Shown here: piece by piece, positions 6,850-48,343 of the stretch
Numbering within the stretch: the stretch's first letter is position 1
How the letters are laid out: each line of letters begins with the position of its first letter
IMG/VR virus record: IMGVR_UViG_3300009151_000084
Coordinates: 1 to 57,205 of that record
Length of the DNA stretch: 57,205 nt
Strand: one strand, 5' to 3'
DNA from: a virus
Lineage: Duplodnaviria; Caudoviricetes
The notes under the pieces: generated by a model
Told to the model about the DNA's origin: nothing
What the model saw: the letters and a program-made list of their open reading frames with translations, nothing else
The model's database searches: none
Made by a program: the position numbers and the translations under genes

Positions 6850-7088
6850 TGGTCACCTACGACCCTCGGGGTATGGAGTGGAATTTTTGGTGCCCATTGA
6901 TGGCAGAGCTTTTTGCAGGGCAACAACTTGGCACAGTGCCCGAGGAGCAGTGGCAGGATTGGGCAAATGGCGTATCTGGGATTGGTTATTTTGGCAATTC
7001 AGCAGTACCTGATGCAAGTTGTTTTGATGACTGGCAAGACTGGGCGCAAGCGCTAGTGGGTATTATGGATATAAAGGCAACAGCATGA
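6849..7088 (+). CDS. Small Trp-rich hypothetical protein
   Basis: Repeated WQDWA; overlaps both neighbours. Confidence 0.6.
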   Translation: MVTYDPRGMEWNFWCPLMAELFAGQQLGTVPEEQWQDWANGVSGIGYFGNSAVPDASCFDDWQDWAQALVGIMDIKATA

Positions 7089-20122: not shown

Positions 20123-20400
20123 GTACAACAATGAGTGATTTTCAGAAGTCATTTTTATCGCGTGGTGGTATGACCGTCTACACGCAAAAGGAGTTTGACG
20201 CGCACTTAGCAAAAGCGCAGGCGCAGATTATGCAAGTAGCAATTGACACGACTAAGACAGCGATTGTCATTGAGAGAGAAGAGTGCGCCAAGATTGTCGA
20301 TGAGATGCGCAAAGAGATGGAGAGCCCTGATATGCCGATGGTGATGGATATTGCGCTCGCAAATCTTGCAGAGAAAATTCGTAACAGGCTGAAGAAATGA
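20119..20400 (+). CDS. Hypothetical protein
   Basis: EREECAKI...A.KIRNR motif common in phage small proteins; start may be 20107 or 20119. Confidence 0.6.
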   Translation: MSTTMSDFQKSFLSRGGMTVYTQKEFDAHLAKAQAQIMQVAIDTTKTAIVIEREECAKIVDEMRKEMESPDMPMVMDIALANLAEKIRNRLKK

Positions 20401-21761: not shown

Positions 21762-21987
21762 TTTACTTGGCGATGAAGAGTTTGACTGGCAAAAAGAATG
21801 GCAGGGCATGCCAGAGTTCGTTCAGGATGACATGAAGGCTATCAGTTCGATAGTGGTTAACTTCCTGACCGTCGAGGATATGAATGCATTCAGTGAGCTG
21901 ATCGGTAAACGAATCACGTTCACAACGAAGAGCGTGCTGTTCCCTGTTCAGCAAACCGCCAAAAAGATATACGTCGATGAATCCTGA
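21754..21987 (+). CDS. Small protein coupled to the glycosyltransferase gene
   Basis: WQKEWQGMPEF.Q motif; overlaps the start of the next gene. Confidence 0.7.
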   Translation: MADLLGDEEFDWQKEWQGMPEFVQDDMKAISSIVVNFLTVEDMNAFSELIGKRITFTTKSVLFPVQQTAKKIYVDES

Positions 21988-22807
21988 ACATCCTGTTTAC
22001 ATCGTATCAAAGGGAAGGTGGGAGAGCAGGCTCACGAGCAAAGCATTAGAGCGAATGGGCGTGCCCTACAGAATCGTGATCGAGCCGCAAGAGTACGACG
22101 AGTACGCCGCGGTGATCGACCCGCAAAAGATCCTCGTATTGCCCTTCAGCAGTCTAGGCATGGGTTCCACGCCTGCCCGCAACTGGATCTGGGAGCACGC
22201 GGTCTCTGAAGGTGCGACATGGCACTGGATCCTCGATGACAACATTAATGGCTTTGTGAGGCTCAATCGCAACGAGCGGGTGCCTGTGTACTCAGGATCC
22301 ATTTTTAAAGCGACTGAGGACTTCGTAGGGCGTTATGAGAACGTCGCGCAGGCAGGGTTCGAGTATCGATTCTTTGCAGGAGGTAATCGACGCAAGAAGC
22401 CCGCGTTCAGGCTGAACACGAGGATCTTCAGTTGCATCTTGATGCGCAACGATATCCCGCACAGGTGGACGCAGAAGTACAACGAAGACCTAGACCTCTC
22501 GCTCAGGATCCTGAAGGATGGTTGGTGTACGGTGATGTTTCACGCCTTCCTGCAGAACAAAGCCGCCACACAGAGCGTTAAGGGGGGCAACACTGAGGAT
22601 CTGTACGGCGACGGCACTCTCGAGAAGTCTAAAGCTATCGTGCAAGCCCACCCAGACATGGCGAGTCTAGTCTGGCGCTATGACAGGTGGCACCATCAAG
22701 TCGATTTCGACGTGTTCAGGCGCAATATTCTGAGGCGTAGACCCGAGCTCGAGCTCCCTGAAGGGGTCAACGAATACGGCATGAAGCTCATTAGGGTAAA
22801 CACCTAG
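21977..22807 (+). CDS. GT-A glycosyltransferase, GREB1/TET-associated (TAGT)-like
   Basis: PVYIVSKGR, IEPQEYDEY, ARNWIWEHA, HWILDDNI, NEDLDLSLR, GGNT, RWHHQVD. Confidence 0.75.
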   Translation: MNPEHPVYIVSKGRWESRLTSKALERMGVPYRIVIEPQEYDEYAAVIDPQKILVLPFSSLGMGSTPARNWIWEHAVSEGATWHWILDDNINGFVRLNRNERVPVYSGSIFKATEDFVGRYENVAQAGFEYRFFAGGNRRKKPAFRLNTRIFSCILMRNDIPHRWTQKYNEDLDLSLRILKDGWCTVMFHAFLQNKAATQSVKGGNTEDLYGDGTLEKSKAIVQAHPDMASLVWRYDRWHHQVDFDVFRRNILRRRPELELPEGVNEYGMKLIRVNT

Positions 22808-30499: not shown

Positions 30500-30729
30500 T
30501 GACGTATTACTTCGACAAAAAAAAGGGCAGAATTGCCCATCTCTGGAACGACACTGACACGTTCTGTGGCTTCCTGAAAGCAAACGATGGCTCAGGTAAG
30601 CAGATCCAAACAAACAAGCTAGAACGAGACATCTGCCACGCCTGTGAGCTCAAGTGGCTACTGTGGGACGAGGAAGGTAGCACAGAGCCCAAAAGATCTT
30701 TACAATCTCAGGCATCACAAACGCTTTGA
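30499..30729 (+). CDS. Hypothetical Zn-binding protein
   Basis: GTG start; AHLW...DTFC...ICHAC. Confidence 0.55.
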   Translation: MTYYFDKKKGRIAHLWNDTDTFCGFLKANDGSGKQIQTNKLERDICHACELKWLLWDEEGSTEPKRSLQSQASQTL

Positions 30730-30739
30730 GAGAAAGCTG

Positions 30740-31216
30740 ATGGCAACAAAGAAACCAAACGGTAGACCGACCAAGTACACAGAAGAGCTTGTCGCGGAGA
30801 TATGCGACAGGGTAGCGAACGGTACGCCGCTGCGGGAGATCTGCAGGGAGGAGGGGAAGCCGACGTGGTCGACCATATACAACTGGATTGCAAGCAACGA
30901 CGAGTTATTTACACGCTTCGCTCGCGCCCGAGAATTGGGCACTGACGCCATTGCGGAGGACGCGATTGCGATCCTCGACGCCATCCCTGAGCGCATCGAT
31001 GGGGGGCGGATGGACTCAGCGTATGTCCAGTGGCAAAAGAATCGCGTGGAGATGCGTTTAAAGCTGTTGGCGAAGTGGAACCCACGCAAGTATGGCGACA
31101 AGACGATCCTCGCAGGCGACAAGGAGAACCCCGTGGTGACAGAGTCGACGGTGAACGTACTCGACGCAGCCCTGCTCAATCTGGAGCGCAAGCTGCAGGT
31201 CAAGAATGAAGAGTAG
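30740..31216 (+). CDS. terS: Terminase small subunit
   Basis: GRPTKYTEEL..EIC.R.A.G..LR.IC, F.RARE.G, L.KWNPRKYGDK; directly upstream of terL. Confidence 0.85.
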   Translation: MATKKPNGRPTKYTEELVAEICDRVANGTPLREICREEGKPTWSTIYNWIASNDELFTRFARARELGTDAIAEDAIAILDAIPERIDGGRMDSAYVQWQKNRVEMRLKLLAKWNPRKYGDKTILAGDKENPVVTESTVNVLDAALLNLERKLQVKNEE

Positions 31217-32638
31217 GTGTTCACAGTGAACACTTTGACTGACTCGCTCGAGCTGTTCAAGAGTGAGGAGTTCCGCAAGACGTACCTGAGCGCCCCTGCG
31301 GTTAATCGCATCGCGTTCAACTGGCGCCTGAAGTGGCTGTCGACCGCGCACCCCCACCAGATCACCCCGAGCGGGGACTGGTACAACATCCACCTTCTAT
31401 TAGCAGGAAGGGGGGCGGGCAAGACGAGGGTGGCGGCGGAGCAGATCGGATGGTGGGCGTGGCAGCTGCCTAACAGTAGGTGGCTAGTCTCCGCCCCCAC
31501 GAGCTCGGACGTCAGGGCTACCTGCTTTGAGGGTGACTCTGGGCTGATCAGCGTAATCCCACCTGAGCTCGTGGCTGACTACAACAAGAGCTACCACGAG
31601 ATCAAGCTGATCAATGGCTCGCTGATCAAGGGGATCCCCGCGTCAGAGCCTGAGCGCTTTCGCGGTGGTCAGTATCATGGCGCTTGGCTCGATGAGTTAG
31701 CCGCGTGGGACTACCTCAGAGAAGCGTGGGACATGATCCAGTTCGGCGTGCGTCTGGGCAACAAGACAATGATCTTGGCTACCACCACGCCTAAGCCGAA
31801 AGAACTGATCCTAGAGCTGATCGAGCGCGATGGCGATGACGTCTGTGTCACGACGGCTTCGACCCACTCTAATATAGATAACCTCGCGCCAAGCTTTAAG
31901 GCGCAGATCCTGAGCTACGAGGGCACCAAGATCGGCAGGCAGGAGATCTACGCCGAGATCATCGATCCAGAGGAGGGAGGGATTATCGTCAGGGACTGGT
32001 TCCGCCTGTGGTCAGCGGAGCGGGCGTTCCCTGAGTTCGAGTACATCCTGCAGAGCTACGACACGGCGTTCACTGAGCGCACGACAGGCGATCCGACGGC
32101 GTGTTCGGTCTGGGGTATATTCAAGCCCCTCGATCGTCCGCTATGCGCGATGCTGATCGACTGTTGGTCGGAGCACCTCGCGTACCCTGACCTGAAGCCG
32201 AAGCTGTTAGAGGACTATGAGGCGGTGTACGGGGAGCCCGGCAAGCGCGTCGACCTCGTCCTCATCGAGGAGAAGGCGAGCGGGCAGTCGTTGATACAAG
32301 ACCTTGGCAGAGCGCATGTGCAGGTGCGGGGCTATAACCCCGGGAAGTTGGACAAAGTGCAACGCGTCCACCTCATCTCAAACATCATCGCCGCAGGGCG
32401 CGTCTACATCCCTGAGTCGACCAAGCGCAAGGGCTACGTCCGCGACTGGGCTGAGCCCTTCGTGCAGCAGGTCTGCTCGTTCCCTGAGACCAGCCACGAT
32501 GACTACGTCGACACGATGTCGCAGGCGCTGCGCTACCTGAGAGACGCAGGCTTCCTAGACATCGACCCCGATCCGCATTATGATGACGAATACGTCGACG
32601 ACTCTCGCATCAAGCGAGTCAACCCTTACGCAGCGTGA
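31217..32638 (+). CDS. terL: Terminase large subunit
   Basis: AGRGAGKT Walker A, WLDE Walker B, TTTP, QSYDTA, IEEKASG, HDDYVD. The start could be GTG 31226. Confidence 0.92.
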   Translation: MFTVNTLTDSLELFKSEEFRKTYLSAPAVNRIAFNWRLKWLSTAHPHQITPSGDWYNIHLLLAGRGAGKTRVAAEQIGWWAWQLPNSRWLVSAPTSSDVRATCFEGDSGLISVIPPELVADYNKSYHEIKLINGSLIKGIPASEPERFRGGQYHGAWLDELAAWDYLREAWDMIQFGVRLGNKTMILATTTPKPKELILELIERDGDDVCVTTASTHSNIDNLAPSFKAQILSYEGTKIGRQEIYAEIIDPEEGGIIVRDWFRLWSAERAFPEFEYILQSYDTAFTERTTGDPTACSVWGIFKPLDRPLCAMLIDCWSEHLAYPDLKPKLLEDYEAVYGEPGKRVDLVLIEEKASGQSLIQDLGRAHVQVRGYNPGKLDKVQRVHLISNIIAAGRVYIPESTKRKGYVRDWAEPFVQQVCSFPETSHDDYVDTMSQALRYLRDAGFLDIDPDPHYDDEYVDDSRIKRVNPYAA

Positions 32639-35600
32639 CGACTATGTCTAAATTCTCCATTACAGAATCAGCCTCACCTGTGCTAATAGCCATCGAGCGT
32701 GCCAAGCGGCTGATCGAGGCGGAGAAGGCAAAGGCGCCAACCGTCATGACGCGCAGTGGCATCACCGATCTTGCTAACCGCGTGCGGCAGAGCGAGGGAC
32801 AGTACGGCGCCCAACGCGTTGAGCGGGCTGCGGACGAGATCCCGAACCTCGAGAAGCTGTATCAAGATCAAGCGTTAATGCGTGCATTCACTGGCGACAA
32901 CGCGCAAGGGCTGATGACAATGAAGCCATCGGACTTCGAGCGCTATGCGGCTCCGCTTGACGCTAACTTGTCAGGCAGAAGTTTGCAAAAGATTGCCGAT
33001 ATCACTGGCTTTCACAATAACGGTGGGTTTTCTGATGTGCCGTACCTAAACATTAATAAGATGCAGCAAGGCTCGACTGGCTTGCCTTACATCTCTGGGC
33101 ATGAGGGCAGGCACCGCAGCCGAGTAATGGATGCGGCAGGCGAGCAGGCAGGTCTGGTTCAGCTAGTACCGCGGTCGGAGCTGCGCGAGCCGTTCCCCCG
33201 TCGGTCGAGAGAAGACTACCTCGAGGCGCTCTACAAAGAGATGCAACTGACAGGCAACCGCGTCAAGCCACAGAGGTATGATGAACCCGTAACAGACTCA
33301 GCCGACCGCGTGATTGAGCTCCGTAGCAAACAACGCCCCACGATTGAGCTGCCAGAGTTCTACGCCGAGGGCGGCATGATCACCGATCAGCAGACCCCCG
33401 CGGTCGAGGCGCTCAAGCAGACGGTGCAGGACGACGGCGCCAACAAGATGCTGAACCTCGACCTCGCCAAGCTCGCGATCATGCATCAGCCGCAGCGCAT
33501 GGCAGGCGGTGGCGTGCTACACATGAGCAAGGCAGGCTCGGTAACAGACATGGCGGTGGCGGTCGAGAAGGCGAAGCGCAAGCTCTCTGCAGAAGCCGTA
33601 GAAAGGGCAGCGCAACGCGCACTGGATCGTGCTTCGGTCAGGGAACGGGAAGAGGCGGAGGGCTACTACCACCCGATCGGGGGCGGCAACAAGCTGACCA
33701 CGCCGACGAGCCAGATGTCAGCAGAGTATGCGCCTACCGCGGGGGTCAACATGACGCCGCAGCAAACCGTCAACCCAGAGAAGATAGTAGGCGGCGCAAG
33801 CGTACCGCTAGGTGGCGACGCAGCGTTGGGGGGCGTAGATCTGATTGGCATCAATGGCAGAAAATTGTCCGCACCTGTCACGCTGCAGGCGGGGGAAAGT
33901 TTCAGCAGGCAGAACCCCGGCGAGGGGTGGAGATCCCACCAGAACGTCATCAGCTTGCTAGACAATCGCATGCGCGACGCCTACGGCTTGGGCGCTGATA
34001 ACGTGTATGGGGCGTACACGTCGATGGGCCCGATCGCGGGCGACTTTAACCACATGACCACGCAAGCCCTGCTGCGACAGTTTGATCCAAAGACATTTAA
34101 GAAAGCGTTCGAGTTCAACAACGACGTTAGAACACTTGGCGCGTTGGATCCGAACACAGGAGCGATGGTTTACCACGGCAAAGACTTCGTCGGTCTACAA
34201 CACCCAGACCTCGAGAAGCAGTTGATGGATTACGGGAGCGGCAACCTTCGTAAGGTATTCCTCAACCGTGCGCAGATGGCAAGGTATCAGCGCGAGGGCA
34301 TGCCTGACGTGGCGTCCACTAGGTACGGTGTCAACGACCCGACCATGCTGAACACGCCGATCGGCACCGTTGGCAGGAGTATTTCTCAGTTCCCAAGGGC
34401 TGATAGACAAATCATATCGTCGCAGTACCCACCTCACGGTTCATACCCCGCAGGCTTGTATGGCGACTACGTTGGCGGTCTAGAACATCCAGTCTCCTAC
34501 AAAGACTGGTTTCATACATTCTTTGACCCACGCGTAGCCAAGAACGAAAGCCCTGCGAACGAGAATTTTGCATTCATGCGCTCTACGCCGATACAGCTCC
34601 ACACTCAACAGTGGCTTGATCGCGTGATGGGCTCCATCAAGAAGCAGCAGGATGCGCTGAAGCTAGGCACCTACGCAGAAGGCGGCGCCGTCCACATGGA
34701 AGACGGTGGCGACGTTGAGCTACCCACTGGCGGTCTATCGACTGACGTCGGCACCAACCCCCTAAGCATCTACAACCAGAACCTGCCCAAGCCTGAGATG
34801 CGCCTGCACGCACGGCGCAAGACCGCCCCCGATGGCGAGCCAAGCACGATGGACGTGGCGCGACAGCTAGGCATGATGGCGAAGGAGCAGGCAGGCGAGG
34901 AGTGGGACACCCTGAAGGCAAACCCTGTGCGCGGCGCCCTCGACATCCTCAACCGTGGCATGGTCGCAGGCAACGTCGGAGCGCCTGTCGACATTGTCAA
35001 CATGGGGCTGCAGGGCGTCAACTACCTGACAAAGAAGGCAGGGCTAGGTGGCGACTGGGCGTCTGAGAAGCCAGTGATGGGCTCGAAGTGGATCGAAGAC
35101 AAGATGAACGAGCTCGGCATCACGTCAGACAAACATTACCCCATGCTCGAGCTCGCAGCCAACTTCTTGAACCCCGTGGGAATCACCGCGGGGGCGGCGA
35201 AGGCGGCGCCAGTGATCGGCAAGAACGTGTTGATGCCTCTCGCGGAGAAGGGGCTGACGATGTTTGAGAAGGGGCAGTTGACGCCCGGCTTCAAACCCAT
35301 CTCCGAAGTATTCGCAGGCAGCACAGCAAAAGGCGCCGACCTCGCCGCCCGCGATACCGCCAAGGCACGCCTAGCGGCAGGCGAGGATCCCGCGCTTGTC
35401 TGGAAGGAGACAGGATGGGCAGCACCACCGTGGGCGCCGAACGACCTGCGCTTCGAGATCAGTGACCACGCCATGACCTCAAACGCCCCTGCGGCGGTTA
35501 ATGCAAAGCTTGATGCGCATAGCAGAAAGTTGGCAAATGTTTATTATGCTCAGGAAATTAAACGCAATGTCGCATCAGGTGATGCATTCGACGATGCCGT

Positions 35601-36504
35601 GGTAAAAGCCGAGGCTACTGTAAAAAACGCAGGGTTAAAGTTACCGATGACGCCAGAGGCTGAGGCTTTAGCCCGCGATCCTAACGTCACTCGCGCAGAA
35701 CTCGTCAAGGAGTTTGACAAGGGGAAGGTCAAAAAAATCTCCACCATTGGCAAGCTGTCTGGCAAACTAGACAAGTTCGTCGACCATGATGAGTTCTTTG
35801 CGGCGTACCCTGACTTTGCACAGAAGATCAAATTCAAAACTCTCAACGCAAAAGAGACGAACAGGCTGCACGGCTCCTTTAGTCCGTCAGATGCAGAGCT
35901 CTCAATGAGTGCTCCGCAATTGAGAAGCAAGCCAAACGATGCGCTCGATACAATCATCCATGAATTGCAGCACGGCGTGCAGTCGCGTGAGCGGTGGAAC
36001 AATGGTGGCAACTCTAGTAGCGTTACAGCCTATCCCTCCAATTACGATCCTGTCACCGCTCAGTCAAAACAGCAACTCACAGATATGATGGTTGCTGACA
36101 ATGGTAGGCTCGGCGATCTGTACAGGAAGGGGCAGACAACTAAGTTGAGTCCAATGGAGATTCAAGAGCTGAACCACCGAATCAGGAGCACTCCAGAGTA
36201 TTCAAAGTATCAGAAAGACGCACTAACCTTCCGACAAAGCGATACTCCGTACGCGCTGTACGAGCGCTTAGCAGGCGAGGCAGAGGCTCGGTTGGCGCAA
36301 GGGCGCAGAACGCTGAAGCCAAACGAGCGTCAGGATCAGTACCCCTACGACCCGCAACACTTCAAAAAGCTGACTGGTTATGACATTAATTCAATAATCG
36401 CCAACCCTGTCAGGGCGGCAAATAATTTCAGCAAAGGTGGCGCCGCAAGTCACCCGTCTGTTGAAGAGATGCGCATCGAGATGATGGAGCGTAAGCATGG
36501 CTGA
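32635..36504 (+). CDS. Giant multi-domain (polyvalent-type) virion cargo protein 1
   Basis: ParB-like HEGRHR; LPD23-like WKETGW...RFEISD; zincin HELQH...GEAEAR; several YAEGG/MEDGG linkers. Confidence 0.7.
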   Translation: MTTMSKFSITESASPVLIAIERAKRLIEAEKAKAPTVMTRSGITDLANRVRQSEGQYGAQRVERAADEIPNLEKLYQDQALMRAFTGDNAQGLMTMKPSDFERYAAPLDANLSGRSLQKIADITGFHNNGGFSDVPYLNINKMQQGSTGLPYISGHEGRHRSRVMDAAGEQAGLVQLVPRSELREPFPRRSREDYLEALYKEMQLTGNRVKPQRYDEPVTDSADRVIELRSKQRPTIELPEFYAEGGMITDQQTPAVEALKQTVQDDGANKMLNLDLAKLAIMHQPQRMAGGGVLHMSKAGSVTDMAVAVEKAKRKLSAEAVERAAQRALDRASVREREEAEGYYHPIGGGNKLTTPTSQMSAEYAPTAGVNMTPQQTVNPEKIVGGASVPLGGDAALGGVDLIGINGRKLSAPVTLQAGESFSRQNPGEGWRSHQNVISLLDNRMRDAYGLGADNVYGAYTSMGPIAGDFNHMTTQALLRQFDPKTFKKAFEFNNDVRTLGALDPNTGAMVYHGKDFVGLQHPDLEKQLMDYGSGNLRKVFLNRAQMARYQREGMPDVASTRYGVNDPTMLNTPIGTVGRSISQFPRADRQIISSQYPPHGSYPAGLYGDYVGGLEHPVSYKDWFHTFFDPRVAKNESPANENFAFMRSTPIQLHTQQWLDRVMGSIKKQQDALKLGTYAEGGAVHMEDGGDVELPTGGLSTDVGTNPLSIYNQNLPKPEMRLHARRKTAPDGEPSTMDVARQLGMMAKEQAGEEWDTLKANPVRGALDILNRGMVAGNVGAPVDIVNMGLQGVNYLTKKAGLGGDWASEKPVMGSKWIEDKMNELGITSDKHYPMLELAANFLNPVGITAGAAKAAPVIGKNVLMPLAEKGLTMFEKGQLTPGFKPISEVFAGSTAKGADLAARDTAKARLAAGEDPALVWKETGWAAPPWAPNDLRFEISDHAMTSNAPAAVNAKLDAHSRKLANVYYAQEIKRNVASGDAFDDAVVKAEATVKNAGLKLPMTPEAEALARDPNVTRAELVKEFDKGKVKKISTIGKLSGKLDKFVDHDEFFAAYPDFAQKIKFKTLNAKETNRLHGSFSPSDAELSMSAPQLRSKPNDALDTIIHELQHGVQSRERWNNGGNSSSVTAYPSNYDPVTAQSKQQLTDMMVADNGRLGDLYRKGQTTKLSPMEIQELNHRIRSTPEYSKYQKDALTFRQSDTPYALYERLAGEAEARLAQGRRTLKPNERQDQYPYDPQHFKKLTGYDINSIIANPVRAANNFSKGGAASHPSVEEMRIEMMERKHG

Positions 36505-39500
36505 TCCAGTCAAGGCAGCACAGGTCGTCGAGATGGCGCTTAAACGCGCTCGACAGGCAGCGAAGTCCGCTCGGATCGCCGAGTACAAGGATCCCGTCAC
36601 CACTAAGGCGGAAGACTGGAAGTGGAAGCCCCTTGAGGGAGTAGCGGACAAGCTAAAGATCGAGGCGGTGCCTGACTACATTCAGGGCGGCTACGGCGAC
36701 TTCATGAAGGAGCAGCTCAAGCGTGCGGAGAAGGGCGACCTCAACGCTCGAGATCTAATCAAGGCATACACGATCACGCAGGCGTCGATCGGTCGCGGTG
36801 GTCTGTCGCACTCGACGGCGACCAAGCACGGCTTGCGATTACCCAACACTGGCGAAGAGGTTCGTCCCGAAGGCGCGTTCGCTGAGTGGCTAGGTTCACC
36901 GATGGGGCAGCGCTACCTCAATGCTGCGGAGCTCGGCAAGCCAGACGCTGCTGCGATGCAACAATTGCGCACAATGTTCTCCCCTTACGGCAAGCAAGAC
37001 GATCAAGTCGCCAAGATGCAGTGGGCGGCGGACAACCTGCCGAACATGGCGAAGGATCTCAATGCGAGGGTAGCAGGCGGTCGCGACGAGTGGCGCGATT
37101 ACTCTGACAGCCTGCGAGGTATCGCTGCAGCGAAGTCAGGCTTCGTTGGCTCCCTGCTCGGACGTGGCGACATCCCCACGCTTGACGCACGTCAGATCAA
37201 TCTGCACACGACACCCGCACCAGTAAGCATGGGCTCGATTCAGAACCGCGGCAAGGGTACAGGTGGGCGTGAGCTCGTCGATCGCTTGGCGGCGCGTCAG
37301 GATGCGCTTGAGCTAGGATTAGACCCAAGCCTCGCCCCCTTCTATCAGCACCTCGGTCACCACGCGGTATGGGACAAGATCGGCGGCACCGAGACCACGC
37401 ACAACGACCTCATGAAGGCGATGCGTGGTTACGACAAGGGTGGCGCGGTTCATATGGAGGACGGCGGCATTACGCCACGCGCTTTCAGCTTTTCACCCAC
37501 AGATCGTGATGAGCATAATCGCAAGCTAGGATTGCCTGCTGAGTTCTATCGTTCAGGTCAAACCGATCCAACAATGCAGAGTTACGGCGCAGGTATGAGC
37601 GTTCCAGTTGGGGGCGCTAGGCTGACCGCCGATGCAATAGCATCACGCAATGCGCAGATGCGCGACACACTAGCAGGTATCATGCTCGGCGCTGAGTTTC
37701 CTGTCGGTAGCGGTACGCTTCGCGCTGAGATGATGCGACCAACAATGCAAGGTGCCTCACCTCAATATGGGTTGAGATACAGCAGACCATTTGCTGAAGG
37801 CGGTCAAGTGCAGCGCTTCGATGAGGGCGGCGACGTCAACCAAGCAGAGCTCGATCGCATGCGGCTAGAACTAGCCAACAGCCCTGTCATCCAAGCCACG
37901 CCACAGTCCACCACGCAGAAGATGATCGGCACGGTAGGTGGCTACATGGATCAGGCAGGCAAGTTCGTCAGCGAGGCGATGAAGCCTATTGCTGAGACGC
38001 ACCCGATCCGCACCTTCCTGACAGACATGATGATTGCGGATCCGCTCAAGAGCGCAGGCGCCGCGCTGCAGGACTATACGAAGACTAGCCGCGACATCAC
38101 CGAGGAGCAGCCCTACACCCGCAGCCCTGTCACAGGGAGCGGTCAGACGCTACGCCTTGACCCTCGCGTGCTAGACGTCGCACAGTTCGCGACGCCTGTC
38201 ATCAGGGGGGCGACCAAGCTTGCAGGGGCAGGAGCGAAGGCGGTGGCGCCGTTTGCGTCGAAGGTGGACGACATGGTGCGGGAGCTGTACGAGGCGGGGA
38301 CGCTTCCACAGCCGGGGTTGTCAATCAAAGACGTCACCCCCAAGGCTCTCGCCCCCGCCAATGAGCAGGGGTTCTACTCGCCTACTGAGGCGGCAGCACT
38401 GAACCTGCAGCGCAAGTCAGGCAACGGTCAGCAGTTCTTAAACGACATCCTGAAAGGCGATAACGTGCGCTCGGAAGAGGTCAGCAACATGGGGCTCGAC
38501 ACGTTCCTGAAAGACAAGAAGAACGTCACAGCGGCTGAGGTGCAGGACTTCATCGCGCAGAACAAGATGAGATTGGATGAATCGAGGTATGGGGCAGTTA
38601 AAGAAGACCCTGTTGGAATGGAAAAACGCAAAGAGATATTTGATTCTTATCAACCTGAAATTGATAGGCTATACAAAGAACATGATGCTTATTTTGACGC
38701 AGGGGACAATGCAGCTAGGCGCAAAGTTGAAGAGCAAATAATTAACGTGCAACTTAAAAGAAATTTAGAAGCCCATAGCGCGTATAAACTTCCTATTTCT
38801 AAGCATACAAGATTTGAAGATTGGCAACTCCCCGGCGGCGAGAACTACCGCGAGGTGGTGTTGACATTGCCACAAACGCCAGAGCATAGTGAGTTTGCTC
38901 GTCTTAATAAAAAAATGAATGAAGATGGTTTGCTTCCTGATGAAATGAATCGTTGGACGGAGTTAGGCGGTGATCTAGGCGCGGAAGGCAGACGTCAAGC
39001 TAAGGAAGGAAGGTATCGAACCCCTCATTGGGAGGACGTAAATCCCATCGCCCACATTCGTTTAAGCGACCGTGTGACTGACGGCAAGAAGACGCTGTTG
39101 GTTGATGAGGTGCAGTCTGACTGGCATCAGGCAGCGCGAGACATCAGAACCGCAGAGGTTAAACGGTTGGTTGAAACATACAATGTATCAAAAGAAGATG
39201 CGCAGAAAGCCGTGCCGAAAGATTATGGATATAGAATTGCTGACCCAGTAAAAAAGAATGCAGACGGCACGTTCACTGTGATTCAAAACGATGGCACGGT
39301 AATGAATTTTCCTGCCACAACAGACATTGACATGCTTCGAGGTAGTTTTGGAGCTGACGCAGGCGTACCTGACGCGCCTTACAAAGACGATTGGTATCAA
39401 CTTGCGCTCAAGCGTGCGGTCAAAGAAGCGATTGATGGCGGCTACGACCGTGTGGCGCTGCCAACTGGTGAACGTGTCGCAGATCGGTTTCAATTGACTC

Positions 39501-40099
39501 ATTACATCGATCGGATTGCCCACAAAAAAAATGCCGACGGTACATATAGCCTTGCTGCCGTTGACAAGGAAGGCAGACCTGCGTTGAATGACAAGAGCGT
39601 GCCGCAAGATAAATTGGCAGGCATCGTTGGTAAAGAAGTGGCTCAAAAAATTATTGATGCTGAAGGGAAGGGGTACCCGAAAGGAAGCGTTAGCGAAGAT
39701 ATGCTTATTTTGTCAGGTCTTGATCTAAAGACTGGCGGCGAGGGTATGAAGAAGTATTACGACGAGATCTACCCTAGCTACCTCAAGAAGTTCGGCAAGA
39801 AATACGGCGCAACAGTTGGCAAGACTGATGTTGTTACTGATAACAAAGCCAATGGAATTTTGGAAGCCAACGGAAAATTTTTTGTTATTTCAGATGATGG
39901 CATTAACTTCAAAGAATTTAATAATTACACCGAAGCGGCTAAGCATTTAGGCGTTGGTGTAGAACCCCTGCACTACATGGACATCACCCCCGCGATGCGC
40001 AAGGAGTTCAAGACAGGCATTCACATGAAGAAGGGCGGCGCAGTACACTTCGCTGACTCACTAGACGCAATGCGTCATGAATTAACAAAGGCTAAATAA
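36497..40099 (+). CDS. Giant multi-domain (polyvalent-type) virion cargo protein 2
   Basis: HhH-glycosylase-like N-terminal module; beta-rich module; GFYS...LPGGENYRE...DEVQSDWHQ module; xxxGG linkers. Confidence 0.7.
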   Translation: MADPVKAAQVVEMALKRARQAAKSARIAEYKDPVTTKAEDWKWKPLEGVADKLKIEAVPDYIQGGYGDFMKEQLKRAEKGDLNARDLIKAYTITQASIGRGGLSHSTATKHGLRLPNTGEEVRPEGAFAEWLGSPMGQRYLNAAELGKPDAAAMQQLRTMFSPYGKQDDQVAKMQWAADNLPNMAKDLNARVAGGRDEWRDYSDSLRGIAAAKSGFVGSLLGRGDIPTLDARQINLHTTPAPVSMGSIQNRGKGTGGRELVDRLAARQDALELGLDPSLAPFYQHLGHHAVWDKIGGTETTHNDLMKAMRGYDKGGAVHMEDGGITPRAFSFSPTDRDEHNRKLGLPAEFYRSGQTDPTMQSYGAGMSVPVGGARLTADAIASRNAQMRDTLAGIMLGAEFPVGSGTLRAEMMRPTMQGASPQYGLRYSRPFAEGGQVQRFDEGGDVNQAELDRMRLELANSPVIQATPQSTTQKMIGTVGGYMDQAGKFVSEAMKPIAETHPIRTFLTDMMIADPLKSAGAALQDYTKTSRDITEEQPYTRSPVTGSGQTLRLDPRVLDVAQFATPVIRGATKLAGAGAKAVAPFASKVDDMVRELYEAGTLPQPGLSIKDVTPKALAPANEQGFYSPTEAAALNLQRKSGNGQQFLNDILKGDNVRSEEVSNMGLDTFLKDKKNVTAAEVQDFIAQNKMRLDESRYGAVKEDPVGMEKRKEIFDSYQPEIDRLYKEHDAYFDAGDNAARRKVEEQIINVQLKRNLEAHSAYKLPISKHTRFEDWQLPGGENYREVVLTLPQTPEHSEFARLNKKMNEDGLLPDEMNRWTELGGDLGAEGRRQAKEGRYRTPHWEDVNPIAHIRLSDRVTDGKKTLLVDEVQSDWHQAARDIRTAEVKRLVETYNVSKEDAQKAVPKDYGYRIADPVKKNADGTFTVIQNDGTVMNFPATTDIDMLRGSFGADAGVPDAPYKDDWYQLALKRAVKEAIDGGYDRVALPTGERVADRFQLTHYIDRIAHKKNADGTYSLAAVDKEGRPALNDKSVPQDKLAGIVGKEVAQKIIDAEGKGYPKGSVSEDMLILSGLDLKTGGEGMKKYYDEIYPSYLKKFGKKYGATVGKTDVVTDNKANGILEANGKFFVISDDGINFKEFNNYTEAAKHLGVGVEPLHYMDITPAMRKEFKTGIHMKKGGAVHFADSLDAMRHELTKAK

Positions 40100-42681
40100 T
40101 GGCTACTCAAATGCCCATCCCGCAGGACTATGATCCGACGTCTGAGGACAGTAGCGCTCTAGATAACACCGCACTGACAGACATATTCAACGATGATGTT
40201 CAGCAAGAGGTTGAAGAGCAAGAAGACGGATCCGCGATCGTCCGCTTGGATGACTTAAAGACGCCTGAACAGTCGCCCTCGTTCTACGAGAACATGGTTG
40301 ATGACATCGACGCGTGGCGCCTGTCGACGATCGCGTTGAAGTACCTCGACATGATAGAGAAGGATAAGGAAGCCCGTGAAGGACGCGACAAGCAGTACGA
40401 AGAGGGATTGCGTAGGACTGGGTTGGGGCATGACGCCCCCGGCGGTGCGCAGTTCATGGGCGCCTCCCGCGTCGTGCATCCTGTCATGGCTGAGGCGTGC
40501 ATCGACTTCTCTGCGCGGGCGATTAAGGAGTTGTTTCCGCCTGACGGGCCCGTCAAGACAAAGATCAACGGCGAAGTAACCGAGGCTAAGACCACCAAAG
40601 CCGAGCGCAAGCGCGACTTCATGAACTGGCAGCTTACCGAGCAGATCGAAGAGTACCGCGACGAGGAGGAGCAGATCCTAACCCAGACACCCCTTGGCGG
40701 ATCGCAGTACATGAAGATCTGGCGCGACGATCAGAAGAAGCGCTCGTGCGTCGAGTTCCTGCCGATCGACAACGTCTACCTTCCCTACGCCGCGGGCAAC
40801 TTCTACACTGCTAGTCGCGTGACCGAGGTCAACAACATCACGCAAGAAGAGTTTGAGCTGCGCGTGTCGAAGGGTTTGTATGCTGACATCAGCATCTATC
40901 GATCGAGCGAGGAGCCTGAGCTCACCAAGCCTGAGAAGGCGAACGACAAGATCGAGGGCAAGAAGTCAGAGTACGAGAACATTGATGGCGTGCGCACCGT
41001 TTATCACATCTATACATTCATGGAGGAGGAGGATGACCGATTCTCCAAGGGTGAACGCGCCCCTTACATCCTGATGATTGACAAGAACACTTCCGAGGTC
41101 GTGGGTTTGTACCGCAACTGGGAGGACGGCGACAAGCAGATGTCCAAGCTTGACTGGATCATTGAGTTTAAATTCATTCCGTGGAGGGGTGCGTATGCGA
41201 TTGGGTTGCCTCATCTTATCGGTGGCTTGTCTGCTGCTCTTACTGGCGCTCTTAGAGCTCTGCTTGATTCTGCTCATATAAACACCAACCCGACGATGCT
41301 CAAGTTAAAGGGCGGCAAGGTGTCAGGGCAGTCGATTGTTGTTGAGCCCACGCAGGTGACGGAGATCGAGGGGGCGCCGGGGATTGACGACATCCGCAAG
41401 ATCGCCATGCCCATGCCCTTCAACCAACCAAGCCCAACCCTACTGAGTCTATTAGGATGGCTCACCGACGCCGCTAAAGGGGTCGTCACGACCGCCGAAG
41501 AGAAGATCGCCAACGTGAATGCCAATGCCCCTGTAGGCACGACGCAGGCGCTGATCGAGCAGGGCTCAGCAGTGTTCTCAGCTATTCACGCACGCCTACA
41601 TCAGTCGCAGGCAAAGGTGTTCAAGGTTCTGGCTCGTTTGAACCGTTGGTACCTCGACGAGGATGATATCGAGATGGCGAAGGAGCTCGGCGTGACAAGC
41701 GCTGACTTCGAGAAGAACGACGATATCGTGCCTGTGTCAGATCCGCATATCTTTTCGGAGACTCAGCGCTATGCTCAGGTTCAGGCTCTCGCGGCACGAG
41801 CGGCAGCGAATCCACAAATCTATAATCTGTTGGCTGTTGAGAAGCGAATTCTTAAACAGCTCAAGATTCCTGATACGAACGAAGTGCTACCTGATCCGCA
41901 GGATGTTAAGCAGATGAACCCTGCGCTCGAGAATGTGGCGATGACGATAGGGAAGCCCGCGGGGGCGTTCCCCGGTCAAGACCACCTCGCGCACATTCAG
42001 GTGCTTCTGGACTACGCCAAAGACCCGATGTACGGTTCCAACCCCATCATCGCGCCTGTGTTCATCCCCCGCGCCCTCGAGCACCTCAAGCAGCATCTGA
42101 CGCTCTGGTACCTCGACTCGATGGACAACTACACAAGCAAAGCGTTGGGTAGGCGCTTTGACATCCTGAAAGAAGAACCCATCATTAAGGAGGCTCAGCA
42201 ATTGCTCGCGGCATCATCGCAGCATGTCTTCATGGACGTCCCTCAGCAATTCAATGGCGTCGCGCCAGTCATGCAGCAGATGATGGGCATGATGCAGCAG
42301 CTTCGCCAACAGCAGCAGCCGCAGGATCCTAGCGTACAGGCTCTGGTACAGACTCAGATGGCTGAGACTCAGCGCAAGGCGAAGAATGACAACGATCGCC
42401 TACAGCTTGACGCAGCTAAATTGGCTGCAGACACTCAAGCCAAGCAAGAGAAGAACGTGGCTGACGAGCAAATGAAGGCTGCAGAGATCACGCACGATAT
42501 CAACGTGCTCACGCTCGAACAGCAACACGAAATGCAGCGTCAGCAACTGCAGGCGCAGCAACAGCAGCAACTTCAAGAACAGGCGGCGCAGCAAGCTCAA
42601 CAGCAAGCAATGCAGCAATCTGAGCAGGAGCAGCAAATGCAACAAATGCAACAAGAACCTCAACCTCAGCAAGGAGTTTAA
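40099..42681 (+). CDS. Portal protein
   Basis: F.GASRVVHPVMAEAC.DF.ARA.KELFP..GPVKT, YAIGLPHLIGGLS, APVGTT.ALIEQG; Gln-rich tail; follows the terminase region. Confidence 0.85.
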   Translation: MATQMPIPQDYDPTSEDSSALDNTALTDIFNDDVQQEVEEQEDGSAIVRLDDLKTPEQSPSFYENMVDDIDAWRLSTIALKYLDMIEKDKEAREGRDKQYEEGLRRTGLGHDAPGGAQFMGASRVVHPVMAEACIDFSARAIKELFPPDGPVKTKINGEVTEAKTTKAERKRDFMNWQLTEQIEEYRDEEEQILTQTPLGGSQYMKIWRDDQKKRSCVEFLPIDNVYLPYAAGNFYTASRVTEVNNITQEEFELRVSKGLYADISIYRSSEEPELTKPEKANDKIEGKKSEYENIDGVRTVYHIYTFMEEEDDRFSKGERAPYILMIDKNTSEVVGLYRNWEDGDKQMSKLDWIIEFKFIPWRGAYAIGLPHLIGGLSAALTGALRALLDSAHINTNPTMLKLKGGKVSGQSIVVEPTQVTEIEGAPGIDDIRKIAMPMPFNQPSPTLLSLLGWLTDAAKGVVTTAEEKIANVNANAPVGTTQALIEQGSAVFSAIHARLHQSQAKVFKVLARLNRWYLDEDDIEMAKELGVTSADFEKNDDIVPVSDPHIFSETQRYAQVQALAARAAANPQIYNLLAVEKRILKQLKIPDTNEVLPDPQDVKQMNPALENVAMTIGKPAGAFPGQDHLAHIQVLLDYAKDPMYGSNPIIAPVFIPRALEHLKQHLTLWYLDSMDNYTSKALGRRFDILKEEPIIKEAQQLLAASSQHVFMDVPQQFNGVAPVMQQMMGMMQQLRQQQQPQDPSVQALVQTQMAETQRKAKNDNDRLQLDAAKLAADTQAKQEKNVADEQMKAAEITHDINVLTLEQQHEMQRQQLQAQQQQQLQEQAAQQAQQQAMQQSEQEQQMQQMQQEPQPQQGV

Positions 42682-42683
42682 TC

Positions 42684-42941
42684 ATGTCAGAAGCAATTTC
42701 GCAGCACAAGAAGATGGCAATGGGCGAGTCAGTGCCTATGGCTAAGGGCAAGTCAGTTATGCCTAAATACGCGTCAGGTGGCGCCGTCATGAAAGAGGGT
42801 GGCGTAGCTAACCTACCCGCCAAAGGATCGGCACCTCCACCCCTCGCACGTCCTGCAGCAGGCATGGCAGGCAAGATCGCTACCCTGAAGAAGGGCGGTG
42901 CCGCTAAGCCAATGCGCAAGGTAGCAGGTCGTGGAAGGTAG
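42684..42941 (+). CDS. Small basic protein with three xxxGG motifs
   Basis: AAGGAG RBS; YASGG, MKEGG, LKKGG. Confidence 0.7.
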   Translation: MSEAISQHKKMAMGESVPMAKGKSVMPKYASGGAVMKEGGVANLPAKGSAPPPLARPAAGMAGKIATLKKGGAAKPMRKVAGRGR

Positions 42942-43147: not shown

Positions 43148-43555
43148 ATGACGCTTGATGAAGCATTTCCCGCAGTAGATTCTGGCTGTACTCCACTAGG
43201 TGGTCGAGTATTGATTCAGTTCAAACAGGTGCCAAAGAAGACCACAGCAAGTGGGATCATTTTAATGGAAGATACCAAAGAGACTGAAAAGTGGAACACT
43301 CAAGTCGCAAAAGTTGTTGCGCTTGGGGCACTAGCCTACAAAAACCGCGACACAATGGAGCCGTGGCCCGAGGGCACATGGGCTAAGGTCGGCGACTTCG
43401 TTCGCGTTCCAAAGTGGGGTGGCGACCGTTGGGAAGTTCCTTACGGTGAAGTGGTCAATGGCGATCAAGATATGGCGCTGTTCTCCGTGTTCAACGATCA
43501 CGAGATCATCTCTAAGGTGACTGGCGATCCATTGAAAGTGAAGGCATTCTTATGA
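43148..43555 (+). CDS. groES: Co-chaperonin GroES-like protein
   Basis: PLGGRVLI, TASGIIL, KVVALG, KVGDFV, NDHEII; AAGGAG RBS. Confidence 0.85.
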   Translation: MTLDEAFPAVDSGCTPLGGRVLIQFKQVPKKTTASGIILMEDTKETEKWNTQVAKVVALGALAYKNRDTMEPWPEGTWAKVGDFVRVPKWGGDRWEVPYGEVVNGDQDMALFSVFNDHEIISKVTGDPLKVKAFL

Positions 43556-44529
43556 ACTCAACAGACAAGATGGAAATGCAGGTCGAGGAGTCATCCGACG
43601 GCAGCGCGATGATCGAATTGCCCTTGCAAGAGGGTGATGTTGCGCAGCCAATGTCGCAAGGTGGCGCCGTGGAGGACGACGACGATCATGAAGATGGCTC
43701 TGACGGGCTAGATTCAGACCCAGATCGTGAAGCAATCCGCGCAGCACGTCGCGAAGAGCGCAAGCTCAAGAAGTCTATCCACCGTGAGAAGGCAAAAGAG
43801 TCTAATCACCTGATCAATGCCCTCAAAAAGCAGAATCAGCAGTTGGCGGACAGGCTTGCAAACCTCGAAACGCGCACTTCAGGTGCCGAATTGGGGCGTG
43901 TCGAGAAGGTGATGGAAGACACGCAGGTGCAGATCGAGTACGCGAAGATGAAGATGAAGGAAGCTGTCGCCTCGCAGGACGGAGAATCGATGGTTCGGGC
44001 GCAGGAATTGATGTATGAGTCGATGCGCAAGTACGAAGCGCTCAAAAACATCAAGGAAAATGCCACGAGGCAGATGTCTCAGCCCCAACAGGCGAACATT
44101 CAACTCCCTGACCCTAGCGTACAGCGTAATGCGGCTGATTGGATGCGCAAAAACAGTTGGTACGACCCCGCGGGCAAGGATTTAGACTCCGAACTCACGC
44201 AAAGTATCGACAAACGACTCACCGCAGAGGGTTATGACCCTTCAAGCTCAGAATATTGGGAAGAATTGGACACGCGCCTAGCAAAATACCTTCCGCATCT
44301 CTACGATAGCGGCGGTAATCGCAATAATTCAGAGAGACGCGAGCGTCCGCGCTCGGCAGTCACTGGAACAGGCAGGGAATCGACACCATCTCGCAGTGGT
44401 AGCAACTTTACGCTCTCACCGCAGCGTGTTGCCGCCATCAAAGAGATGGGGATCTGGGATGACCCTGACAAGCGTAAGAAAATGATTAACCGATTCATCG
44501 AGTATGACCGTCAAAACAAAGGAAATTGA
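43552..44529 (+). CDS. Putative capsid scaffolding protein
   Basis: Acidic N-terminus, long coiled coil, W..KNSWY, C-terminal helix; lies between portal and capsid. Confidence 0.65.
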   Translation: MNSTDKMEMQVEESSDGSAMIELPLQEGDVAQPMSQGGAVEDDDDHEDGSDGLDSDPDREAIRAARREERKLKKSIHREKAKESNHLINALKKQNQQLADRLANLETRTSGAELGRVEKVMEDTQVQIEYAKMKMKEAVASQDGESMVRAQELMYESMRKYEALKNIKENATRQMSQPQQANIQLPDPSVQRNAADWMRKNSWYDPAGKDLDSELTQSIDKRLTAEGYDPSSSEYWEELDTRLAKYLPHLYDSGGNRNNSERRERPRSAVTGTGRESTPSRSGSNFTLSPQRVAAIKEMGIWDDPDKRKKMINRFIEYDRQNKGN

Positions 44530-47806: not shown

Positions 47807-48343
47807 ATGGGTCAATTTAAGCCAATGCCGAAGATGGAAACCACCGAGCCTTCAGTCATCCTGAAGCTCAAGAAAGGTGGTGTTGCGAAGAAAGCAATGG
47901 GTGGGGCTCTGCCAGTTGGACAGCCTCAGACAGCCCGCTTGCCTGCGATTGTTCCTCCTACAGCACCTGCTATGGCGGCTGCACGCCCTCGGGGTGCAAC
48001 GCTGATGGCGTCGCGTGCGCCGATGCGCCCAAGCCCCGGGATACCTCCACAGGCAATGGGTCGCAAGAAAGGTGGCGAGATCGAAGGCAAAGCCGAGCAC
48101 GCCAAGGAAGAGCGCGAGATCAAAGGCATCAAGAAAGAGCTCATGTCGCACGAGGACAAGCCTGCGTCGAAGGCGCACAAGGGCTTAAAGCGTGGTGGTA
48201 AAACATCACGCACCTACGTTGCCAATGACAATCTTGCAATGGTGAACAAGGCACGCCGCGGTTATGCCGATGGTGGTCACGTTGCGATGGGTTGCAAAAG
48301 CACTGACGGTTTTAAAGCCAGTAAAAAAGGCGGTTCTTTTTAG
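47807..48343 (+). CDS. Basic low-complexity protein with six xxxGG motifs
   Basis: LKKGG, KAMGG, RKKGG, LKRGG, YADGG, SKKGG. Confidence 0.7.
   Translation: MGQFKPMPKMETTEPSVILKLKKGGVAKKAMGGALPVGQPQTARLPAIVPPTAPAMAAARPRGATLMASRAPMRPSPGIPPQAMGRKKGGEIEGKAEHAKEEREIKGIKKELMSHEDKPASKAHKGLKRGGKTSRTYVANDNLAMVNKARRGYADGGHVAMGCKSTDGFKASKKGGSF

Follow-up and report, generated by a model that had tools for sequence, protein, structure and literature searches.

A GG-box-associated helix at the joints and ends of putative cargo proteins encoded between terminase and portal in a podophage lineage

Polyvalent proteins are giant multi-domain proteins that are encoded beside the terminase and portal genes of phages and conjugative elements (Iyer, Burroughs, Anand, de Souza and Aravind 2017, PMC5512222). 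Two open reading frames (ORFs) that we assign to this class by analogy, A and B, stand between the large terminase and the portal gene of the podophage record IMGVR_UViG_3300009151_000084; the window analysed here is the whole viral record of 57,205 bases (CheckV completeness estimate 91%). We describe a short element of these proteins, motif 2 ([ED]-x-M-R-x-E-[LM] in its strict form), which is tied to double-glycine stretches (GG boxes) and to the ends of modules and proteins, and which is very probably a genuine, selected and portable element. The way in which a phage chooses its capsid-borne proteins is known in a few model phages and not for polyvalent proteins. Polyvalent proteins and capsid-targeting peptides are both known, and conserved tags on polyvalent proteins are apparently new: no description of junction or terminal tags on such proteins was found in the literature searched, supplements being outside its scope.

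A and B and their relatives share with the described polyvalent proteins the LPD and ART-PolyVal type of domains, nucleic-acid-directed modules, an extensive domain shuffling and, as in some members of the class, a zincin-type peptidase fold (PMC5512222). That paper deals with domains and apparently not with inter-domain signals, and the word 'linker' does not occur in its main text. A and B are different in as much as their junctions carry a conserved GG box and a motif-2 helix, which are confined to a single lineage and mark where proteins end. The slot between terminase and portal can also be compared to the MuF (SPP1 gp7) proteins fused to toxins, where variable effectors are encoded beside the portal and are thought to enter the capsid by way of a conserved targeting part (Jamet et al. 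2017, PMC5576092). In MuF proteins a whole folded domain, some hundreds of residues long, does the targeting, whereas here we find a helix of about 15 residues and a linker. Pfam gave no match to a MuF domain in A or B (E <=0.01), nor in eight pieces of them (E <=1).

The capsid targeting signal of T4 is N-terminal and is removed by the prohead protease. Motif 2, unlike this signal, is mostly C-terminal or internal, is predicted to be helical and comes after a GG linker. A scan of 59 window proteins gave no prohead protease family, several head-module proteins being without a family. The likeness lies in the principle: the T4 sequences and the propeptides of giant-phage ejection proteins (on which see PMC9958956, PMC3012670, PMC10052503) are short, terminal and portable peptides that bring unrelated cargo into the prohead. 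Encapsulin cargo-loading peptides are likewise short, conserved, terminal and transferable, they are found on unrelated enzymes and are recognised by a shell of HK97 fold (PMC8346489, PMC11866011). An encapsulin is a shell without DNA packaging, whereas this phage has a terminase and a portal; the resemblance is one of mechanism only and the motif is apparently unrelated.

Motif 2 was evaluated in the relatives of A and B. All ORFs of at least 300 amino acids (aa) between terminase and portal were collected from 80 portal-anchored loci, which gave 70 distinct proteins, or 72 with A and B; we call them slot proteins. The relaxed pattern [DEQ]xM[RKQ]x[EA][LM] has 66 matches in these 72 proteins (63,828 aa), compared to a mean of 1.41 and a maximum of 5 in shuffled sequences. 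The same loci hold 576 other ORFs that are 150 aa or longer (200,845 aa in all), and the pattern matches none of them. When 65 proteins from a second locus set are included, there are 80 distinct instances in 135 proteins: 12 are N-terminal (first 40 residues), 28 are C-terminal (last 25 residues) and 40 are internal. A GG lies at most 18 residues upstream of 27 of the 28 C-terminal and 26 of the 40 internal copies, and of none of the 12 N-terminal ones. A profile of the motif scores 8 bits or more in 61 of the 88 complete slot ORFs and in none of the 576 controls, where only the control side is independent as the positives are also the training set. The original prediction had named motif 2 as a signal that follows GG sites, and in this respect it is borne out: the element is conserved, portable and tied to GG boxes as well as to the ends of modules and proteins.

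The sequence logo reads P, S/T, L/V/I, D/E, any residue, M (invariant by construction), R/Q/K, any residue, E/A, L/M, followed by M/A, any residue and R/K. The predicted helix is amphipathic, with hydrophobic residues at positions i, i+3 and i+7 and charges flanking them. At the C-terminus a complete tail consists of a GG box, 3-9 residues, the helix, a few basic residues and the stop codon. This tail stands behind 15 upstream contexts that are unrelated by BLAST, among 38 distinct ones, as is expected of a portable short peptide. A more distant phage, MW202675, has GG boxes and no motif 2 in any of its four cargo-like proteins; the same holds for gp41 and gp42 of HTVC027P, and a six-frame scan of the phage RW genome gave a single, chance-like match inside the portal. 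The portability data thus tie the helix to a single lineage (portal identity about 57% and above), and not to any module. In the tails of relatives the residues are kept while the DNA differs; judged from such comparisons, selection on the cassettes of GG box and motif 2 is at the protein level.

All six sites listed in the original prediction, three of motif 2 and three of a second pattern, A-[IVL]-[EK]-[RK]-A-[KR] (motif 1), were found on the plus strand, within the ORFs and at the positions given for them (Table 1). The distance from GG to the methionine is 10-11 residues at all three motif-2 sites, in agreement with the claim that they follow GG sites, and the internal one has orthologous copies in four relatives (loci L003, L013, L014 and L163). 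Strict motif 2 matches A and B 3 times, compared to a mean of 0.0036 in 5000 residue shuffles (3 matches were reached in none), and strict motif 1 also 3 times, compared to a mean of 0.0115 and a maximum of 1 in 2000 shuffles. These numbers overstate the significance because the patterns were written after the sites had been seen, so that conservation in relatives is the real test. Within the window the motif-2 profile finds exactly the three sites and no others. A six-frame translation of the whole window contains one extra match to the relaxed pattern: a 97-aa ORF in the replication region has DEMRKEM at 20299, probably by chance.

The six sites are associated with domain borders, as had been suggested: in AlphaFold2 models of B (72-row alignment, mean predicted local distance difference test score, pLDDT, 65.5) and of residues 1-1200 of A (29 rows, mean 64.5) all of them are predicted helices that lie beside low-confidence linkers, at the edges of confidently folded domains. 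The stretches of the B model with pLDDT below 50 are exactly its three clusters of GG boxes. Residues 1-311 of B are a confident domain, with block means of 81-97 except around residues 241-260, where they fall briefly to about 53-66. The context of the GG boxes is defined, with an aromatic residue or Met at -3, Ala at -2 and Val at +2 relative to the GG. Ten residues are identical in the boxes at A683 and B315, with differing codons. A recent DNA duplication was considered as the origin of this identity and was rejected, since no long direct DNA repeat connects the cassettes and only 29 of 48 nucleotides (nt) are identical over a stretch of 16 codons.

The borders are also the places where relatives differ. 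Among the 482 BLAST homology breakpoints of the slot proteins, which are not mutually independent, 101 lie within 25 residues of a GG box or helix, compared to 43.5 +/- 5.8 at random (maximum 62 in 1000 trials). The giants are mosaics, as had been proposed, and their modules occur fused, split, permuted or alone in relatives; of the further loci, 83 of 90 carry the same large terminase (TerL), portal or A modules. In L162, where A is 86% identical, there is no stop after the last GG box of A and the frame continues into B from residue 315. Seen against L162, the glycosylase-like module of B and the gene boundary together behave like an insert with GG boxes on either side. L164 has a single ORF of 1794 aa in which an A-like protein is joined to a part resembling B from residue 430 onwards; both in L162 and in L164 the frame runs past the last GG box of A (A1265-1271) into further modules. 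The A modules are permuted in L166 (order 341-687, 243-293, 1045-1289, 27-249), module 1 of A (residues 27-249) is found within the second slot protein of L003, and in L021 A305-678 and B588-1185 are adjacent in one protein of 1837 aa. Domain shuffling, gene fusion and gene fission at defined joints are thus directly visible among close relatives.

The proposed grammar of the joints did not survive in its original form, in which every unit was to consist of motif 1, an effector, a GG box and motif 2. Motif 2 also occurs at the N-terminus without a GG, in 12 of the 80 instances. Stand-alone modules were expected to keep the same terminal motifs; of these, the 8 stand-alone copies of the N-terminal module of B (298-412 aa, six on contigs of at least 19 kb) have kept the GG box and not the helix, and in one of them, P0139, the module is preceded by a GG box and a motif-2-like helix. 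The GG box of B312-326 is also where the glycosylase-like module ends in most of the distinct relatives listed. The same expectation failed for the C-terminal module of B: the tail is present in 4 of 18 short homologues, and the other 14 have different endings, mostly of one shared kind. From the stand-alone copies it follows that the GG box travels with the C-terminus of the module, while the helix is optional and is not needed by every module.

Motif 1 is a local feature. It had been taken for a general signal, and its strict pattern matches neither the 70 wider relatives nor the controls. Its sites are kept in the closest clade (terminase identity 87-96%, loci L162-L171). The leader of A with site A19 is kept in L162, L163 and L164, and in L164 it is directly followed by a GG linker, module 1 being missing. 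The A309 site lies 16 residues downstream of the GGG at A291-293, and this cassette behind the GGG box is kept in the same three loci, with a different downstream module in L163 and L164; the motif is absent at the same place in L001, L003 and L014. At positions orthologous to A19 and A309 in L001, L003, L014, L021 and L023 there is nothing, or a loosely similar charged helix. The leader of B is kept in the second gene of L163, where it is followed by a GG box and a different module. The L164 leader without module 1 and the B leader before another module in L163 speak for discrete elements rather than plain orthology.

The description of motif 1 as a module-start helix can stand for B14, since a related short basic helix precedes the glycosylase-like module in many relatives (internal and N-terminal copies), in stand-alone proteins and in the distant MW202675. 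It cannot stand as one common signal, the three elements being non-homologous. A loosened pattern, A-[IVLF]-x-[RK]-A-[KRQH], has 31 matches in 144,250 aa of slot proteins as against 8 in the 200,845 aa of controls (shuffle mean 7.6), and the matches fall into five orthologous groups. That motif 1 is a degenerate motif 2 was rejected, because A19, A309 and B14 receive no score from the motif-2 profile, even with very lax thresholds. By eye, the B leader resembles the leaders of L166, L169 and L170, in which a motif-2-like stretch runs into a motif-1-like stretch. Judged from their sequences, we read motif 1 as three unrelated leader or extension helices, N-terminal and rich in Ala, Lys and Arg, which are not part of the motif-2 tag.

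As to the function of motif 2, we favour an explanation in which A and B are chains of exchangeable modules, joined by junction cassettes of one to three GG boxes in disordered linkers that are often followed by a short amphipathic helix, P-[ST]-[LVI]-[DE]-x-M-[RKQ]-x-[EA]-[LM], and by basic residues. The helix is a portable and lineage-specific tag, situated near N-termini, at C-termini (especially that of the portal-adjacent protein) and at those internal junctions that match gene boundaries of relatives. During procapsid assembly it would dock the cargo onto a conserved head component, with the portal as a first guess and the scaffold or capsid protein next, and the GG linkers would act as flexible tethers and as points of module exchange. 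A docking or encapsidation tag is favoured on account of the position at protein ends, the portability, the restriction to one lineage, the amphipathic pattern, the disordered tethers, the absence from non-slot proteins and the coupling to the portal gene. We consider a loading or docking role a serious possibility whose chances are somewhat below even; provided that motif 2 docks, the portal is a tentative choice of receptor, with the likelihood leaning further to the other side. Co-folding of the portal (24-row alignment) with the last 50 residues of B (17-row) gave a score of 0.00, which speaks neither for nor against binding.

If the favoured explanation is true, it gives a testable rule for how an abundant group of podophages from fresh and marine waters selects its cargo, cargo genes could be recognised from sequence even when all their modules are of unknown function, and the tag might be used to load foreign proteins into capsids. 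A bolder version, which we find doubtful, is that GG box and motif-2 helix form a loading tag of this podophage lineage that is generic and works in plug-and-play fashion: the capsid would take up whatever module stood between two cassettes in the terminase-portal slot, and the last tag would be tied to the portal both by the codons of the ribosome-binding site and by the peptide docking on newly made portal. Such a tag would be a phage counterpart of the encapsulin loading peptides, and it would explain how the content of the slot can range from zero to about 2,500 residues of anti-host enzymes in shuffled order.

Several points weigh against the docking explanation. Firstly, the evidence that A and B are packaged in the virion is their gene position and the analogy with the family (Iyer et al. 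2017, PMC5512222), and the slot is empty in Caulobacter phage RW and Roseobacter phage CRP-902 despite related head genes, so that the cargo is dispensable for head assembly. Secondly, the tag is far from universal: 27 of the 88 complete slot ORFs have no profile match of at least 8 bits, the motif is at the C-terminus in only 25 of 63 distinct portal-adjacent proteins, a clade of short slot proteins (377-450 aa) ends in a different way and carries motif 2 internally, and all 8 stand-alone N-terminal modules of B end at the GG box plus 2-11 residues with no motif 2 behind it. Thirdly, many instances of motif 2 are related by descent and their counts are therefore not independent events. Fourthly, the tail is genetically linked to the conserved portal gene. 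In the tail of A the codons after VEEMRIEM hold GGAG, 9 nt before the ATG of B, and the last codons of B hold the AAGG ribosome-binding site of the portal gene (junctions at window 36480-36499 and 40070-40101). By a strict spacing rule, the ribosome-binding site of the downstream gene falls within the last 3-5 codons of the tail at 15 of 19 distinct portal junctions, and the A|B junction shows the same arrangement. The basic residues at the end are for this reason dual-coded, and part of the terminal conservation may be at the level of nucleotides or RNA.

A different account, which we regard as unlikely, is that a protease of phage or host cleaves the giants, as polyproteins, at the GG boxes or close to them, with motif 2 as an exosite or as the new N-terminal end. 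The defined residue context of the boxes and their predicted disordered surroundings are compatible with this, and a cut at the GG would leave an internal helix 5-13 residues from the new N-terminus, natural N-terminal copies lying roughly 9-27 residues from the start. Self-processing by embedded metallopeptidases was proposed for some polyvalent proteins (Iyer et al. 2017, PMC5512222), and A contains a small zincin-like fold with HELQH. GG boxes are moreover found in other small basic proteins and in a scaffold-like head protein. However, homologues of the zincin module occur in few loci while the cassettes are general, and a cut at the last GG would free a peptide of roughly 20 residues without cargo. 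Apart from a cell-wall M23 domain, neither Pfam nor PHROGs indicates a prohead protease or other processing protease among the 59 window proteins scanned, there is no Pfam peptidase in 35 diverse giant slot proteins of relatives, and a candidate, a 180-aa head-module protein, gave only unnamed viral clusters in the ESM Atlas. Double-glycine cleavage signals have their cognate cysteine peptidase encoded together with the substrates. No such Pfam family (bacteriocin-leader, papain-like or deubiquitinase-type) was detected in the 59 window proteins or in the 35 giants of relatives, where unannotated proteins remain.

A further account takes the cassettes as passive, i.e. as flexible linkers or tolerated recombination joints in which the helices would be stiffeners, or would travel with conserved translation-start regions of adjacent genes, and would target nothing. 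Breakpoints cluster at the cassettes, close relatives inherit tail, stop, start and leader as one gene-boundary unit, the tail codons include ribosome-binding sites, and stand-alone modules do without the helix. Yet conservation of an invariant Met and four other constrained positions, in 15 unrelated contexts and down to a portal identity of about 57%, goes beyond what a plain linker would maintain, and so does the constancy of residues whose codons differ. Copies at N-termini and at internal sites are not followed by a start codon that they could serve, and the other phage ORFs (200,845 aa) contain no match at all. We consider this account about as unlikely as proteolytic processing.

Still less probable is a zipper in which the C-terminal helix of one slot protein pairs with the N-terminus of the next protein, or of the portal, and holds split polyproteins together noncovalently. 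It would suit the genes being translationally coupled and the A|B, L163, L166, L169 and L170 boundaries, where a C-terminal motif-2 helix is followed by the leader helix of the next gene. In L005, L006 and L009, however, the first slot protein lacks the C-terminal helix and the next protein has an N-terminal one, and the tails of A and B are alike while their downstream neighbours (the B leader and the portal N-terminus) are unlike. Finally, it is very improbable that helix and Gly-rich stretch (B449-484) are an alpha/beta-type SASP relative that binds packaged DNA: the Pfam SASP model matches this segment (E 8e-4), but its 19.7 bits are below the gathering score of 22, among 31 other segments with the motif there is a single, weak match (L014, E 0.18), and searching the PDB with a profile of five orthologous segments gives no SASP chain at E <=10, for which reasons SASP homology of the motif-2 helix was rejected.

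Table 1. Features of the terminase-portal region in window coordinates (starts and ends of A and B are ORF calls, i.e. predicted genes)
Feature	Position	Strand	Residues	Remarks
small terminase	30644-31216	+		Sf6-type
large terminase	31217..32638	+		left slot border; Pfam Terminase_6N E 2.1e-22, Terminase_6C E 5.7e-10
ORF A	32635..36504	+	1289 aa	first terminase-portal slot protein; putative polyvalent cargo protein
motif 1 site A19 (AIERAKR)	32689..32709	+	A19-25	predicted helix 14-31, N-terminal leader, pLDDT about 50
GG box	33361..33381	+	A243-249	end of A module 1; pLDDT <50 at 246-257; homology breakpoint at 243-249
GGG box	33499..33519	+	A289-295	pLDDT <50 at 280-307
motif 1 site A309 (AVEKAKR)	33559..33579	+	A309-315	start of predicted helix 302-342 into folded domain 343-678
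YTH-like fold (modified-base reader) with insertions	33727..34650	+	A365-672	weak match; pLDDT 84-98
triple GG box	34672..34734	+	A680-700	end of YTH-like domain; pLDDT <50 at 680-812; breakpoint at 678
LPD23 domain	35308..35478	+	A892-948	Pfam E 2e-11 (E 5.1e-12, piece alone)
small zincin-like fold	35755..36006	+	A1041-1124	HELQH at 35959-35973
GG box	36427..36447	+	A1265-1271	before C-terminal helix of A
motif 2 site (VEEMRIEM)	36460..36483	+	A1276-1283	6 residues from C-terminus; profile 16.3 bits
ORF B	36497..40099	+	1200 aa	second slot protein; putative polyvalent cargo protein
motif 1 site B14 (ALKRAR)	36536..36553	+	B14-19	predicted helix 4-29, N-terminal extension before glycosylase-like fold, pLDDT 81-92
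HhH-GPD (Ogg2-type) DNA-glycosylase-like fold	36629..37402	+	B45-302	
double GG box	37430..37474	+	B312-326	end of glycosylase-like module; pLDDT <50 at 315-334
double GG box	37790..37837	+	B432-447	pLDDT <50 at 392-447; breakpoint at 430
motif 2 site (LDRMRLEL)	37850..37873	+	B452-459	predicted isolated helix 449-460 between low-confidence stretches; 11.6 bits
widespread module	38258..40015	+	B588-1173	PHROG 7348 E 3.5e-15; pLDDT up to 97
GG box	40025..40045	+	B1177-1183	before C-terminal helix of B; pLDDT <50 at 1174-1184
motif 2 site (LDAMRHEL)	40061..40084	+	B1189-1196	C-terminus; predicted helix 1189-1199; 14.0 bits
portal protein	40099..42681	+		right slot border; PHROG 1216 E 7.5e-18

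Both giants carry several unrelated domains on one polypeptide, a YTH-like, an LPD23 and a zincin-like domain in A, and an Ogg2-like glycosylase fold and a separate C-terminal module in B, and this make-up is that of polyvalent proteins (PMC5512222). The glycosylase-like fold of B was assigned with VIA-align as a second look rather than with Foldseek, which gave no match of the B model to the PDB at E <=0.001 (its glycosylase match has E 0.1). The three best VIA-align matches of B45-302 are all of Ogg2 type, i.e. 8-oxoguanine DNA glycosylases matched over their whole length (3n0u_C with Z 16.7, root-mean-square deviation (rmsd) 2.8 Å, 203 of 208 residues; 3knt_A with Z 16.0; 3fhg with Z 15.7), and other HhH-GPD enzymes have Z of about 10. 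HhH-GPD glycosylases have a catalytic Lys and Asp behind the helix-hairpin-helix, for which K213 and D230 would be candidates in B. The two are the commonest residues of their columns among homologues of the module (34 and 30 sequences, respectively), counts that are rough because alignment A1, made for the B model, is partly misaligned and places some homologues of the C-terminal module under columns of the N-terminal one. Stand-alone glycosylase-like modules of about 300 aa are common in metagenomes. The C-terminal module of B has 201 short homologues.

In A, the fold of residues 365-672 matches 4u8t_C with Z 8.2 (rmsd 4.1 Å, 145 of 155 residues), and YTH domains make up most of the 50 VIA-align rows listed, a weak but consistent result. 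Residues 1041-1124 match two minimal zincins with Z 5.4, selecase (4qhj_A, rmsd 2.5 Å over 70 residues) and jannalysin (4jix_B). Neither fold has a Pfam match. No PDB chain matched the sequences of A, B or the portal at E <=1, and PADLOC and NCBIfam scans of A and B gave no match either. Among 35 diverse slot proteins of relatives, ART-PolyVal was found in 9 and PcfJ in 3.

A and B belong to one co-directional block on the plus strand that runs from the small terminase (TerS) through TerL, A and B to the portal, the context of a phage with portal and terminase packaging. The start of B overlaps the stop of A by 8 nt and the stop of B abuts the start codon of the portal gene. Behind the portal follow a basic 85-aa ORF, a Cpn10-like protein, a scaffold-like protein of 325 aa, two small proteins and the capsid protein, which is of HK97 type (304 aa, Pfam match Phage_capsid_4). 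The portal has 325 relatives in IMG/VR. The nearest named phages by portal are the Caulobacter phages RW, KcrB, RLK and GB2A (49% identity), followed at about 31-35% by the Roseobacter phages CRP-901 and CRP-902 and the Pelagibacter phages HTVC027P and HTVC023P. By analogy we infer that A and B are virion-cargo polyvalent proteins in a variable TerL-portal slot of an HTVC023P/CRP-901-like podophage lineage, and that they are probably carried inside the phage head.

The content of the slot varies from 0 to about 2,550 residues across loci. Where the window has 7.4 kb of cargo genes, phage RW (L172, 5247-5627) has a tRNA-Val and CRP-902 (L176, 2422-2429) has nothing; the large terminase of RW is annotated as two pieces that flank a methyltransferase gene. 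The short slot proteins of 377-450 aa (L055 2271-3401, L031 8751-9965 and similar loci) contain a conserved N-terminal peptide, GG boxes and one or two motif-2 helices, as well as two internal stretches that resemble twin-arginine signal motifs (RRxxF/L...); they may be the minimal form of a slot protein. A second type of C-terminal tail, T-H-x-[IL]-x-h-x-E-R-x-L and then stop, is found after the last GG box in L101 (3868-3912), L106 (5590-5631), L099, L107, L108 and L111 and in proteins P0123, P0130, P0132 and P0133. It ends the first slot protein where another slot gene follows, and the portal-adjacent protein still ends in motif 2.

Elsewhere in the window, a TET-associated glycosyltransferase is encoded at 21977-22807 (Pfam TAGT, E 1.5e-42). 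Its sequence suggests that the phage hypermodifies its own cytosines, which may bear on the presence of a glycosylase-like fold and of a YTH-like reader fold in the cargo.

Further GG boxes occur outside the slot: three in the basic 85-aa ORF after the portal (42684-42941), three or four in a basic 178-aa ORF (47807-48343) whose homologue in MW202545 has nine, and others in a 613-aa protein with a tape-measure-like PHROG match (7085-8926) and near the N-terminus of the scaffold-like protein (43552-44529), directly before an acidic run. The predicted mobile loop of the Cpn10-like co-chaperonin (43148-43555), TASGIILMED, resembles the GG boxes GGAVHMED of A and B, and the GG-box pattern also matched the corresponding loop of the homologue in phage RW (L172 9058). 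From this resemblance in sequence we speculate that GG boxes could be hairpins similar to the GroES loop.

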